Positions 3,729 through 15,051 of a DNA stretch of 64,000 bases are shown here, piece after piece. Source of the stretch: a virus (lineage: Duplodnaviria > Caudoviricetes); the IMG/VR virus record IMGVR_UViG_3300014205_000170, positions 416,001 through 480,000 of that record; one strand, written 5' to 3'. The notes beneath the pieces are model-generated. The model had not been told where the DNA came from and ran no database searches. It saw nothing but the letters and a program-made list of their open reading frames with translations. The translations under genes and the position numbers were made by a program. Position 1 is the stretch's first letter. Each line of letters opens with the position of its first letter.

Positions 3729-3818
3729 ATGAGAACAAATACGTCACATAACCATTTTAATAAATCGACTTTTAGTAATAAAAGCCGAATGGGTGTGCTT
3801 TGTGCTCTTGAAAGATAA
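3729..3818 (+). CDS. leader peptide 1 of the Phe/Ser/Asn/His/Thr tRNA operon (MRTNTSHNHFNKSTFSNKSRMGVLCALER)
   Basis: ATG..TAA uORF; residues 3-19 are only T,N,S,H,F,K; followed by antiterminator/terminator and tRNAs for these amino acids. Confidence 0.8.
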   Translation: MRTNTSHNHFNKSTFSNKSRMGVLCALER

Positions 3819-3846
3819 TGAGAGTAAAAAAGATTTAAAACAACAC

Positions 3847-3880
3847 ACCCTGGCCGCTTAAACGTCAGGGTTTTTTGTTT
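3847..3880 (+). terminator. attenuator terminator 1
   Basis: ACCCTGGC/GTCAGGGT stem plus T tract; 5' arm overlaps CACACCC (3844-3850), complementary to GGGTGTG (3791-3797). Confidence 0.8.
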
Positions 3881-3902
3881 TAATGAAGTTCTTTAAAATA
3901 TT

Positions 3903-3975
3903 GGAGATGTAGCTCAGTTGGTAGAGCAAGGGACTGAAAATCCCTGTGTCAGCGGTTCGATTCCACTCATTTCCA
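3903..3975 (+). tRNA. tRNA-Phe(GAA)
   Basis: canonical cloverleaf, loop CTGAAAA. Confidence 0.95.
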
Positions 3976-4008
3976 CAACGTTCGAATGGTACACGTTAAG
4001 TACCCCAT

Positions 4009-4081
4009 GGATACATAGCTCAGTGAGAAGAGCGCTCCGCTGAAGACGGAGAGGTCGGTAGTTCGATTCTACCTGTATCCA
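4009..4081 (+). tRNA. tRNA-Phe(GAA)
   Basis: CTCCG-CTGAAGA-CGGAG anticodon arm. Confidence 0.9.
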
Positions 4082-4090
4082 CAAATATCC

Positions 4091-4176
4091 GGAAGCTCCC
4101 AGTAGACAGAGGTACACCGTCTTGAAAACGGCTAGGGCAGTAAAATGCCGTGAGAGTTGGACTCTCTCAGTTTCCG
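4091..4176 (+). tRNA. tRNA-Ser(TGA), atypical D arm and T loop
   Basis: loop CTTGAAA, long variable arm, G73; T loop TTGGACT. Confidence 0.75.
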
Positions 4177-4207
4177 CAAAAAATTGTTCTTTGAAATGTA
4201 ATTTATT

Positions 4208-4292
4208 GGAGGTTTGACAGAGCGGTAATGTGCTTGTTTGCTAAACAACGGCTAGGATAACACCTACAGGGATTCGATTTCCTTAACCTCCG
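4208..4292 (+). tRNA. tRNA-Ser(GCT)
   Basis: loop TTGCTAA, long variable arm. Confidence 0.9.
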
Positions 4293-4301
4293 CAACAAAC
4301 T

Positions 4302-4386
4302 GGAAAAATGGCCGAGTGGTTTAAGGCGCACGCTTGGAAAGCGTGTAAACAGAAGTGTTTCGTGAGTTCGAATCTCGCTTTTTCCG
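4302..4386 (+). tRNA. tRNA-Ser(GGA)
   Basis: loop TTGGAAA, long variable arm. Confidence 0.95.
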
Positions 4387-4402
4387 CACTAAAAAATAAA
4401 AA

Positions 4403-4708
4403 ATGAATAAATACGCAAGACTCCAACAAGAATTAAGTACAGTTGGAGAAGGTAAAATGAAAGGTTTTGGTAATTCAATGATGCCAATTATTAAATCCGG
4501 TTCGTTATTAACCTTTAAAAAAGCAGATGACTATGATATAGGTGATATAGTTTTCTGCAAAGTTAAAGGACGCTACATAGATGCACACAAGATTACAAAA
4601 AAAGATGCACAAGGTAGATGTATGATAGCAAACAATAAAGGATTTGAAAATGGATGGACTACACAAATTTTTGGAAAAGTAGTCGACATTGAAGAACCAA
4701 AAAAATAA
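4403..4708 (+). CDS. S24/S26 peptidase-fold protein
   Basis: GNSMMP..GDIV..AHKI motifs of the LexA/signal peptidase fold. Confidence 0.65.
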   Translation: MNKYARLQQELSTVGEGKMKGFGNSMMPIIKSGSLLTFKKADDYDIGDIVFCKVKGRYIDAHKITKKDAQGRCMIANNKGFENGWTTQIFGKVVDIEEPKK

Positions 4709-4713
4709 ACACT

Positions 4714-4787
4714 GGGGGAGTAGCTATTAATGTTAGAGCGGTCCGTTGTTAGCGGAAGTGTTGGCGGTTCGAGTCCGTCCTCCCCCG
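4714..4787 (+). tRNA. tRNA-Asn(GTT), G1-C72 variant
   Basis: TCCG-TTGTTAG-CGGA, G73. Confidence 0.8.
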
Positions 4788-4792
4788 CAAAT

Positions 4793-4879
4793 TCTTGGGT
4801 TGCTTTAGTGGCCGAAAAGTCCAGACTGTTAATCTGGTGAGTTCATACTCCATCGCAGGTTCGACTCCTGCCCCAAGAG
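4793..4879 (+). tRNA. tRNA-Asn(GTT) with long variable arm
   Basis: CCAGA-CTGTTAA-TCTGG; variable arm GAGTTCATACTC. Confidence 0.85.
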
Positions 4880-4884
4880 CAAAA

Positions 4885-4965
4885 CCATCTAAAAGATGAA
4901 AGTGGTTGTGTAGCTACTCATTTTTATCAGTTGGCAAACGAAGGTTCGAATCCTTCTTGGATGGG
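4885..4965 (+). ncRNA. tRNA-like RNA lacking D and anticodon arms
   Basis: 8-bp acceptor CCATCTAA/TTGGATGG, perfect T arm GAAGG-TTCGAAT-CCTTC, one long hairpin between. Confidence 0.55.
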
Positions 4966-5001
4966 CGAAAGTTTAAATTTGTACTTTGAACAAGTTAACA
5001 T

Positions 5002-13129: not shown

Positions 13130-13204
13130 AGTTTCGTAGCTCAATCGCGTTAGAGCACTACACTGATAATGTAGAGGTTGGCAGTTCGAATCTGCTCGAA
13201 ACTA
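13130..13204 (+). tRNA. tRNA-Ile(GAT)
   Basis: loop CTGATAA. Confidence 0.92.
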
Positions 13205-13217
13205 CAAAAAATAAAAT

Positions 13218-13290
13218 GGTTCCGTGGTCTAATGGTTTAGGATACTTGACTGTCTATCATGGGGTGGGAGTTCGATTCTCCTCGGAACCG
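13218..13290 (+). tRNA. tRNA-Asp(GTC)
   Basis: loop CTGTCTA, G73. Confidence 0.88.
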
Positions 13291-13318
13291 CAAAACGTTG
13301 GAGAACGTAAAACTTAAT

Positions 13319-13393
13319 GGTATCGTAGTTCAGCTGCGTTAGAATGCTCCCCTGTCACGGGAGAGGTCGCCGGTTCGAGTCCGGTCGGTACCG
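13319..13393 (+). tRNA. tRNA-Asp(GTC)
   Basis: loop CTGTCAC, G73. Confidence 0.93.
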
Positions 13394-13478
13394 CTTGGAA
13401 GCCGAATGTTGCAAAGCATTCTACCTAAAGTACACGGGGTGGTGAAAACCAGCTTCTGAACGTAGTACAAAAATAAAT

Positions 13479-13553
13479 GGGACCTTAGCTCAATTGGCTT
13501 AGAGCGCTTGATTTGCATTCAAGAGGTTGTGGATTCGAGTTCCACAGGCTCCA
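13479..13553 (+). tRNA. tRNA-Ala(TGC)
   Basis: loop TTTGCAT, G3.U70. Confidence 0.92.
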
Positions 13554-13558
13554 CAAAC

Positions 13559-13619
13559 GGGGGATATGGCAAAGATGCATCGCCAGAAGTTACGGTTAAT
13601 TCTGTAGCATCCTCCACCA
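13559..13619 (+). ncRNA. anticodon-less Ala-identity tRNA-like RNA
   Basis: GGGGGAT/ATCCTCC-ACCA with G3.U70 and A73; only two further hairpins. Confidence 0.6.
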
Positions 13620-13628
13620 ACTAAAAAT

Positions 13629-13701
13629 GGGGTGTCATGTACCAAGGCTGGCGAATGTGCTTTGCAAGCACGTTGGGTGAGTTCAATTCTCATACGCTCC
13701 A
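13629..13701 (+). tRNA. tRNA-Ala(TGC), atypical D arm
   Basis: GTGC-TTTGCAA-GCAC, G3.U70. Confidence 0.8.
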
Positions 13702-13716
13702 CAAAAATTAAAGAAT

Positions 13717-13801
13717 GCCAATATCGCATAGTGGTCGATTGCACCTGATTTGTAATCAGGAACTGAATAAGACAGCGGCGGTTCGAATCCGTCTATTGGC
13801 T
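13717..13801 (+). tRNA. tRNA-Thr(TGT) with long variable arm
   Basis: CCTGA-TTTGTAA-TCAGG. Confidence 0.88.
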
Positions 13802-13805
13802 CAAA

Positions 13806-14047
13806 AAAAGTAAAACAAAGGATTCATCGCTGATTATTATTAATTTAATTAGAGGAAGTTCGCGACTGCAAAACCTAATGTAGGAGGGGGTCCTGAAAAC
13901 CGCCATTTGTACTACAGAAGCAGCAACCTAAACAGCTTAAGATTGTCGGTTTATCTATGAGAGCGGGTTAGGGCAGCCATTAGGCCATTGGAAAATGAGA
14001 TAAATGATGAGTTAAAACAAAATCGCGGCTACGCTTATTTTACTTTT
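13806..14047 (+). ncRNA. rnpB: compact RNase P RNA
   Basis: CR-I GAGGAAGTTCGCG (13852) and CR-V ACAAAATCGCGGCTA (14017) forming P4; P1 AAAAGTAAAA/TTTTACTTTT. Confidence 0.8.
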
Positions 14048-14095
14048 TTTATTTTAATATTATATTCGCCTATAGGTTAAGATAGAAAAAAAAAC

Positions 14096-14806
14096 ATGAA
14101 ATATTATGTATATATGTTATTTGATTTAGAAAATCCTTTTTATATTGGTAAAGGAACAAAAAATAGAATGTACGAACATTATAAAAGAGCTACAAAAACA
14201 AAAATAAAATCTCCTGTTTTAGATAAAATTAGAAATATCATTTTAAATAATAGACAAGTGATTTATAAAAAAATTTTTGAGTCTGATATAGAATCAAATG
14301 TTATAAAAAAAGAAATAAATACTATTTTAGAAATTGGTAGAAGAGATTTAAAAACCGGACCACTGTTGAATTTAACAGATGGTGGCGAGGGAGTAACCAA
14401 TTACATTTGGTCAAAAAAACATAAAAAAAATCTTAGTAAATCTATTAAAAAAGCAATAAAAGAAGGAAGATATAATCCTCCAGGAAATATAATTTTAAGA
14501 GAAGAAAAATACAAAAAAACAATGTCTAAAAAAATACAGGAATATTGGAATAGCGAAGAAGGTAAAAAGCATAAAAAAAGAATTTCTGTAAAAAACAAAA
14601 AAAAATTAGATGATGGAAAACGAGTACTATCAAAAAAGGCCAGACAAAAAATGAGAGAATCAGCTTTAAGAACTAATAAAATAAAAAAACAAAAATTAAA
14701 ATGGTCCCGTGGCCGAGGGGAGACGAAAGTCGATAGGCTCAGTTCTGCAAAAACTGCCACATTTGTTCAAATCAAATCGGGACCTCAACAAAATATGCCC
14801 TCGTAG
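14096..14806 (+). CDS. GIY-YIG homing endonuclease with basic NUMOD3-like C-terminus
   Basis: YYVY..PFYIGKG..R..H..E..LLNLTDGGEG; frame runs through tRNA-Cys. Confidence 0.85.
   Translation: MKYYVYMLFDLENPFYIGKGTKNRMYEHYKRATKTKIKSPVLDKIRNIILNNRQVIYKKIFESDIESNVIKKEINTILEIGRRDLKTGPLLNLTDGGEGVTNYIWSKKHKKNLSKSIKKAIKEGRYNPPGNIILREEKYKKTMSKKIQEYWNSEEGKKHKKRISVKNKKKLDDGKRVLSKKARQKMRESALRTNKIKKQKLKWSRGRGETKVDRLSSAKTATFVQIKSGPQQNMPS
14703..14785 (+). tRNA. tRNA-Cys(GCA) with hairpin inserted in the D loop
   Basis: CAGTT-CTGCAAA-AACTG, U73; GAC-GAAA-GTC in D loop. Confidence 0.8.
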
Positions 14807-14869
14807 TTCAACGGATTAGAATACTAAACTACGGATTTAGAGATGGGGATTCGAATTCCTCCGAGGGTA
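14797..14869 (+). tRNA. tRNA-Arg(ACG)
   Basis: loop CTACGGA. Confidence 0.92.
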
Positions 14870-14874
14870 CAAAA

Positions 14875-14970
14875 ACAGAAATAGTTCAGTTGGTAAAACA
14901 CCCGAATCCAAGGGACCAGACCAAGTATAAACAACTTGAAGATTCGCAGGTTCGATTCCTGCTTTCTGTT
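14875..14970 (+). ncRNA. tRNA-like RNA or pseudo-tRNA with rearranged anticodon region
   Basis: intact acceptor, D and T arms; no canonical 7-nt anticodon loop. Confidence 0.55.
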
Positions 14971-14978
14971 CTTAAAAT

Positions 14979-15051
14979 GTCCTCATAGTTCAATGGAGAA
15001 GAGCGTTCGTTTCCTAAACGAAAAATCCAGGTTCGAATCCCGGTGAGGATA
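14979..15051 (+). tRNA. tRNA-Arg(CCT)
   Basis: TTCGT-TTCCTAA-ACGAA. Confidence 0.9.

Follow-up and report, generated by a model that had tools for sequence, protein, structure and literature searches.

We describe here a set of short leader genes in a phage genome, three of them in the stretch of DNA that we call the window (64,000 nucleotides, bases 416001-480000 of the 518,809-bp, or ~519-kb, genome of IMGVR_UViG_3300014205_000170) and the others elsewhere in that genome, which are very probably ribosome-mediated attenuators. That is, judged from sequence, they would meter the phage's own transfer RNA (tRNA) and aminoacyl-tRNA synthetase genes by sensing a shortage of charged tRNA. The genome has five tRNA clusters, and all five open with a short open reading frame (ORF), an antiterminator strand and an intrinsic terminator. 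Five leaders share out all 20 amino acids among the five blocks, and a sixth gates a gene resembling valyl-tRNA synthetase (ValRS). In other words, it is most likely only a shortage at the ribosome that makes the phage produce replacement tRNAs.

Why phages carry tRNAs at all has been an open question for more than 50 years (PMC10264068). How would a device of this kind work? Host RNA polymerase would start upstream of the leader, and a ribosome would translate it. Were the charged tRNAs for the sensor codons plentiful, the ribosome would reach a G-rich strand near the end of the ORF, the terminator would form and no tRNAs would be made; were one of those tRNAs short, the ribosome would lag on the sensor codons, the G-rich strand would capture the 5′ arm of the terminator and transcription would enter the tRNA block that reads those very codons. 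The new tRNAs would then relieve the stall, a codon-specific negative feedback on the supply of charged tRNA. We infer this mechanism from anatomy and conservation: the features of an attenuator that can be tested in sequence are there, namely an ORF ahead of the genes, cognate sensor codons within it, a terminator before the first gene and (weakly so in leader 2) an antiterminator that excludes the terminator and lies just 3′ of the sensor codons.

Leaders Match Their Own tRNA Blocks

Each of the three units in the window runs from an upstream ORF (uORF) to a hairpin with a T run 24-37 nucleotides (nt) past the uORF and on to a tRNA cluster (Table 1), just as a first-pass annotation of this DNA had described. 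That annotation had also paired a GGGTGTG in leaders 1 and 3 with a CACACCC in their terminators, and both motifs are indeed in place; it had listed Cys in cluster 3, where tRNA-Cys lies at 14703-14786 (anticodon GCA by inspection; ARAGORN at a relaxed threshold mis-calls it Pro). Its central observation, that the uORF codons mirror the downstream tRNAs, holds up to statistics: the amino-acid match between leader and cluster has p = 0.0027, 0.049 and 0.0016 for leaders 1, 2 and 3, and the true pairing of leaders with blocks is the best of 120 permutations, by at least 24 bits. Over the five clusters, each block's amino acids are all present in its own leader (25 of 25). Leader-like ORFs stand at 12 of the 44 strong terminators in the genome, at 5/5 of those before tRNA blocks and 7/39 of the others, an enrichment at cluster terminators with a hypergeometric p of about 7e-4 (hand-computed).

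For Ile and Arg, which are split over blocks 3 and 4, the codons follow the isoacceptor of the leader's own block (leader 3 has ATT three times, CGC and AGG; leader 4 has ATA twice and AGA), with joint odds of about 0.003 reckoned post hoc. The first-pass annotation had further predicted, from the window only, that a leader for Leu, Glu and Gln would exist elsewhere in the genome; on sequence that it had not seen, this came true twice over, in leaders 4 and 5.

Synthetases are gated as well. The HisRS-like, GlnRS and ValRS-like genes are preceded by leaders that contain codons for His, Gln and Val, respectively, and GlnRS comes after the Gln tRNA block. Leader, terminator and ValRS-like gene together occupy genome 342129-343642 (L001:6130-7643), and the gene product, at 450 amino acids (aa), is about half the usual length; the HisRS-like product is short too (214 aa), and both may be minimal synthetases, with putative activity. 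Two lone tRNAs, Arg-TCT (genome 354017) and Phe (window 42857), have a promoter directly ahead of them and no leader.

The Design Recurs with Redrawn Partitions

We scanned viral, metagenome and genome collections, as well as whole records, for the pattern and obtained about 360 loci. Under a rule that took no account of codon content, 171 terminators lie before tRNAs, and 153 of these have a leader-like ORF; the 146 leaders that came from other records collapsed by peptide likeness into 55 families. Across these families, the match of a leader to its own block stands at z = 13.9 against shuffled blocks (0 of 20,000 permutations), even with some mis-picked ORFs in the set, which dilute the signal; amino-acid coverage is 0.935, as against 0.70 for shuffled blocks. 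Limiting the comparison to untruncated blocks of ≤12 amino acids leaves z = 10. The distance from stop codon to stem is 17-36 nt in 50 of the 55 families. On this evidence from sequence, the leader-gated tRNA design is real and widespread.

The partition of the code varies between phages, and the leaders change along with the blocks. A 372-kb genome divides it as Asn/His/Thr, Leu/Cys, Asp/Gly/Ala/Tyr/Met/Pro and Ser/Arg/Trp; Leu/Ser/Tyr and Pro/Thr/Arg/Gly/Ala/Val are found elsewhere, and some phages place a full tRNA set behind a single leader with all 20 amino acids. (In the 372-kb phage, G020, tRNAs with TTA and CTA anticodons occur in or near leader-gated blocks [L184, L186]; these are possible suppressors or mis-calls.) Frame, start and stop of the leaders are conserved among homologues, and in the family of leader 3, every indel within the ORF is a multiple of three in length, whereas single-base indels occur in the spacer. 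The first-pass annotation had proposed a multiplexed sensor that reads stalling on hungry codons, to be checked by permuting codon content against array content and to be given up were the uORFs not conserved or their codons indifferent to the tRNAs of homologues. The permutation (z = 13.9, above), the conservation in frame and a codon match that tracks re-partitioned clusters all favor such a sensor, as do the prediction outside the window and the boundary between sensor codons and antiterminator described below.

Matched leaders are present in the huge phages LR756501 (735 kb), LR745206, LR756502 and LR756511 of GenBank, and the cultured Cellulophaga phages phi38:1 and phi4:1 have three each. 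Their leaders begin near positions 35283, 36744 and 37987 in phi38:1 (KC821614) and near 87065, 88025 and 89771 in phi4:1 (KC821632). At the thresholds used, there was no matched leader in crAss001, pT24 or Flavobacterium phage immuto, in the high-GC (guanine plus cytosine) 532-kb phage G003, whose tRNAs are dispersed, or in the small clusters of the close capsid relatives G016, G017 and G022. A blastn comparison of leader DNA with GenBank phages gave no real homologue because the leaders diverge too fast.

Cellular DNA has something similar. In three Bacteroidia assemblies (L173:8520-11673, L171:9574-14963 and L172), tRNAs follow a leader that looks chromosomal, covers nearly all 20 amino acids and has the same switch. 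An RtcB gene lies further downstream in two of the three (L173 and L171), and from their sequence, these two loci are candidates for a cellular translation-stress repair operon under attenuation. On a bacterial contig (L053:1632-3629), a leader of Leu codons with the identical GGGTGTG/CACACCC switch and spacing precedes leuA.

High-GC matches to the GGGTGTG pattern (L009, L010, L012 and others) were rejected as leaders; they belong to a separate, tRNA-free inverted-repeat element. It is a long inverted repeat, perhaps an origin or a structured RNA, that holds both GGGTGTG and CACACCC and is common to unrelated high-GC viral contigs (L009, L010, L012, L013, L014, L017, L021, L025, L028 and L035).

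The Predicted RNA Switch

Across families, the last 36 nt of the ORF pair best with the arm of their own terminator (z = -8.8), and the preference persists in the 40 families without the searched motif (z = -5.9); for the first 36 nt, our control, z = -0.4. Covariation between GGGTGTG and CACACCC was left uncounted because the scan pattern had itself selected those motifs. Cognate codons account for 62% of the codons before the antiterminator strand and for 28% of those after it, and the sensor codons end where that strand starts.

We then modeled the switch at equilibrium, stepping a masked ribosome footprint along the ORF one codon at a time. While the ribosome sits on sensor codons, the predicted antiterminator reaches 0.75-0.99 (0.4-0.5 in leader 2); in all five leaders it collapses as the ribosome passes the last of these codons, falling mostly to ≤0.4 once the strand is covered. 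Formation followed by collapse is likewise predicted for the ValRS leader and for two leaders of phi38:1, and the L053 leuA leader behaves as the phage leaders do. A 1:2 protector helix is predicted for leader 2 and is an alternative fold of leader 1; in the nascent folds of leaders 1, 3, 4 and 5, the equilibrium model does not favor it. Without a strong protector except in leader 2, the untranslated default state may, on this model, be read-through, and were that default open, a general block of initiation would presumably switch the tRNAs on as well.

Several results weigh against attenuation as we read it. Leader 4 taken alone is not significant (p = 0.31), the match at the level of isoacceptors is weak across the other families, and the 55 families are not fully independent, some being homologous to this genome's leaders or sharing a genome. 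In the model, the antiterminator of leader 2 is weak, the antiterminators of leaders 1, 3 and 4 form again with a ribosome at the stop codon, and in all leaders but leader 2 the antiterminator forms with no ribosome at all. Termination must therefore rest on timing or steric effects outside the model; the off state would depend on timing or on a ribosome sitting inside the antiterminator loop. The same model applied to Escherichia coli has ilvL regain its antiterminator at the stop codon (0.73), which thrL does not, and equilibrium folding cannot decide the state there.

Probable Gates in Series

Leaders 1, 3 and 4 have promoter matches between themselves and the upstream gene, whereas leaders 2 (Lys) and 5 (Gln) are internal, and no further terminator was found on the way from terminator 1 to leader 2 or from terminator 4 to leader 5. 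Two Lys codons occur in leader 1 and two Gln codons in leader 4, although the blocks of these leaders lack the corresponding tRNAs. From these facts, the simplest reading is two gates in series, with leaders 2 and 5 probably nested as second gates in the transcripts to which leaders 1 and 4 belong. Leader 5 and the preceding ORF overlap at the stop of the latter, and a putative phage promoter at genome 346010 might also feed this leader.

Downstream of GlnRS, with no terminator between, come an RNA ligase gene (PF09414) and an HD/kinase gene (genome 349962-352388; L001:13963-16389), which, from their sequence, are likely a tRNA repair pair.

The Genome and Its Probable Host

The 518,809-bp genome is complete, with a 123-bp terminal repeat and 30% GC, and has a T4-type capsid gene whose top cultured match is a Flavobacterium phage (35%). 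The Bacteroidota promoter TTTG-19/21-TAnnTTTG, in the consensus of PMC9723704, occurs ahead of genes 15 times, against 1.4 expected (a tenfold enrichment); Shine-Dalgarno sequences are not enriched there (22, as against 25 in a control window), and 60% of the genes have A at position -3. From all this, we take the host of this huge phage to be, most likely, a member of the Bacteroidota. TATTTAT, a candidate phage-specific promoter, is found ahead of genes 61 times against 13.7 expected (for example, at genome 344949 and 346010 and window 6982). A search for bS21 found no match, and therefore there is no link to bS21 phages.

Table 1. Positions of leaders, switches, terminators and tRNA clusters (window coordinates unless marked genome)
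Feature	Position	Strand	Remarks
Operon 1 promoter, Bacteroidota type	3688..3717	+	-33 TTG; -7 box one mismatch from TAnnTTTG; consensus match only
Leader 1 uORF, 29 aa	3729..3818	+	sensor codons Phe, Ser, Asn, His, Thr, plus two Lys; homologues found
Leader 1 antiterminator 5′ strand, GGGTGTG	3791..3797	+	sequence and predicted folding
CACACCC switch segment (3844-3850) and intrinsic terminator 1	3844..3876	+	stem 3848-3870, T run
tRNA cluster 1: Phe x2, Ser x2, Asn x2, His, Thr(GGT)	3903..5814	+	tRNA calls
Short HisRS-like gene, 214 aa, catalytic part	5106..5750	+	within operon 1, directly 3′ of tRNA-His
Leader 2 uORF, 23 aa, five consecutive Lys codons	6198..6269	+	no own promoter match; predicted 1:2 protector helix
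Intrinsic terminator 2	6294..6325	+	hairpin 6294-6319; upper stem can pair with GGGAC 6252-6256
tRNA cluster 2: Lys(TTT) x4, Lys(CTT)	6329..6962	+	tRNA calls
Bidirectional terminator ending operons 1 and 2	7211..7236	.	terminator prediction
Operon 3 promoter, perfect Bacteroidota type	11099..11131	+	consensus match
Leader 3 uORF, 46 aa	11205..11345	+	all 12 cluster 3 amino acids present
Leader 3 antiterminator 5′ strand, GGGTGTG (11318-11324) plus 2 nt	11318..11326	+	predicted folding, homologue alignment
CACACCC switch segment (11379-11385) and intrinsic terminator 3	11379..11410	+	stem 11383-11404
tRNA cluster 3: Gly, Met x3, Val, Trp, Tyr, Pro, Ile(GAT), Asp, Ala, Thr(TGT), Cys, Arg(ACG, CCT)	11526..15052	+	tRNA calls
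Sixth leader, Val-rich, five Val codons	genome 342129-342215		ahead of ValRS-like gene
Leader 4 uORF	genome 343827-343928		codons for Leu, Arg, Glu, Ile, Thr
tRNA cluster 4: Thr-CGT, Leu x4, Arg-TCT, CAT tRNA resembling Ile2, Glu x3, Ile-TAT	genome 344000-345646		
Leader 5 uORF	genome 346435-346515		seven consecutive Gln codons
tRNA cluster 5: Gln x4	genome 346578-346884		

Cluster 3 is interrupted by a GIY-YIG gene (14096-14806). Above threshold, Rfam finds only tRNAs in the region. Two tRNA-shaped elements have enlarged, non-standard anticodon arms (window 3546-3662 and 14875-14970; Rfam 28.8 and 41.8 bits), the first of which has a counterpart at the equivalent place in L003. ARAGORN at a relaxed threshold calls a tmRNA at genome 17780-18274, and ORFs with an RxVLIEK-like tag lie at window 10419-11042, 16124-16528 and 16968-17363.

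Discussion

Could the leaders be something other than attenuators? That they are chance ORFs in front of the terminators of upstream genes is hardly credible to us: about 1/6 of the other strong terminators do have a leader-like ORF, but the permutation tests refute chance, and the pairing with each leader's own terminator, the conservation of frame and the promoters that separate leaders 1, 3 and 4 from the genes upstream oppose it too. An RNA of the T-box kind, binding uncharged tRNA directly with no ribosome, would share the logic of terminator and antiterminator tied to tRNA, and yet it is very improbable here, since many specifier codons lie in a single open frame with conserved start, stop and frame, and Rfam matches neither a T-box nor any other cis-regulatory family in window 1-20000, even with E allowed up to 1. 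Somewhat less remote, although still unlikely, is that a phage antitermination factor or late promoters override the terminators and that the leaders only report the coupling of transcription to translation; the enriched TATTTAT-like putative promoter has variants ahead of several leaders, but override would leave unexplained the match of codons to clusters, the confinement of those codons before the antiterminator and the sorting of Ile and Arg isoacceptors.

If the switch is an attenuator, what is it for? A narrower purpose than general shortage, to which we give a little less than an even chance, is an on-demand answer to host defences that destroy tRNA (PrrC, PARIS and the like). Lys has a gate to itself, and PrrC and PARIS both take Lys tRNA as their target (PMC10264068, PMC11464382). 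Behind the leaders, no gene for amino-acid synthesis was recognised, and extra tRNA could presumably not remedy a missing amino acid. The ligase and HD/kinase genes after GlnRS point the same way, as does the Bacteroidia leader of nearly all amino acids ahead of tRNAs and, at two of three loci, RtcB. Against a defensive purpose, an attenuator is unable to distinguish a cut tRNA from an uncharged one, all 20 amino acids are covered, which goes beyond the known nuclease targets, synthetases are gated as well and there are weak promoter matches ahead of the ligase genes. The same switch might instead do housekeeping, balancing tRNA supply against the phage's translation load or host starvation and so avoiding the cost of excess tRNA. 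This is a serious possibility that we are nonetheless inclined to doubt: coverage of the whole code, synthetases included, and the phages with one 20-amino-acid leader for a full tRNA set speak for it, but partitions so fine and so repeatedly redrawn suggest shortages that are specific rather than global. Taken at its fullest, the defensive reading, which we hold with slightly less confidence than its contrary, is that attenuators, multivalent and partly nested, give many Bacteroidota phages a distributed audit of the genetic code as an inducible counter to tRNA-destroying immunity. On that tentative account, the leaders would detect lost charged tRNAs, turn on only those tRNAs that replace them, together with synthetases and perhaps enzymes of repair, and might thereby record which tRNAs are under attack.

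What would follow from attenuation itself? If phage tRNAs are made only under starvation for the cognate codon, they serve to replenish a pool that has run low and not as a constitutive adjustment to codon bias. It would also mean that attenuation can control tRNA genes and can operate in a virus, and we found no paper for either. A full-text search, with subscription papers mostly outside its scope, found none on attenuators ahead of tRNA genes, which leaves novelty unproven; neither leaders nor terminators come up in the transcriptome paper on phi38:1, and a 2026 survey of phage tRNAs mentions neither attenuation nor leaders nor terminators. A known mechanism is re-aimed here, and no paper was found that describes its output of tRNA arrays, its viral setting, its partition of the whole code or its nesting. 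Because phi38:1 and phi4:1 are cultured on a growable host and have published infection transcriptomes, the system can be tested at the bench, and cheaply. RNA-seq of Cellulophaga baltica infected by phi38:1 is that of PMC5335546. As compact sensors whose codons can be programmed, the leaders could also find use in reading out tRNA status.

Comparison with Known Systems

The ribosome-mediated leader-peptide attenuators of amino-acid operons in E. coli include ilvL, thrL, trpL, hisL, leuL and pheL. Like ilvL and thrL, the phage leaders have a short ORF of sensor codons, a G-rich antiterminator strand at its end, several amino acids per leader and a terminator about 24 nt past the stop (24 nt in both ilvL and thrL). 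Unlike the E. coli leaders, they put out tRNA genes, in a virus, read up to 12-20 amino acids each, share the whole code among operons, are probably nested and have a strong predicted 1:2 protector only in leader 2. The pheM attenuator, which controls the synthetase operon pheST of E. coli, also governs the translation supply chain, much as the ValRS-like, GlnRS and HisRS-like genes are gated here, but it serves one amino acid and one enzyme, is cellular and has no tRNA genes. T-box riboswitches likewise sense tRNA charging and switch a terminator; they bind tRNA directly, with no ORF and one specifier, and have no Rfam match here. In the trn operon of Anabaena, translational stress induces a tRNA array via the repressor TrcR; the array is made on demand there too, but by a protein repressor acting at initiation, which is not codon-specific.

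That phage tRNAs offset host anticodon nucleases has been hypothesised (PMC10264068), and the tRNA-Lys of T5 counters PARIS (PMC11464382), so that there, too, phage tRNAs replace depleted host ones. Sensing or leader control for T5 and PARIS is not found in the abstract of PMC11464382, and PMC10264068 has no mention of attenuation or leaders. Flavobacteriaceae keep biosynthetic operons under leader-peptide attenuators (PMC9723704). Those leaders and the one in L053 differ from the phage units in gating biosynthesis enzymes; they show the mechanism at use in the same host group, and the leuA leader of L053 shares with the phage units its switch and its spacing.

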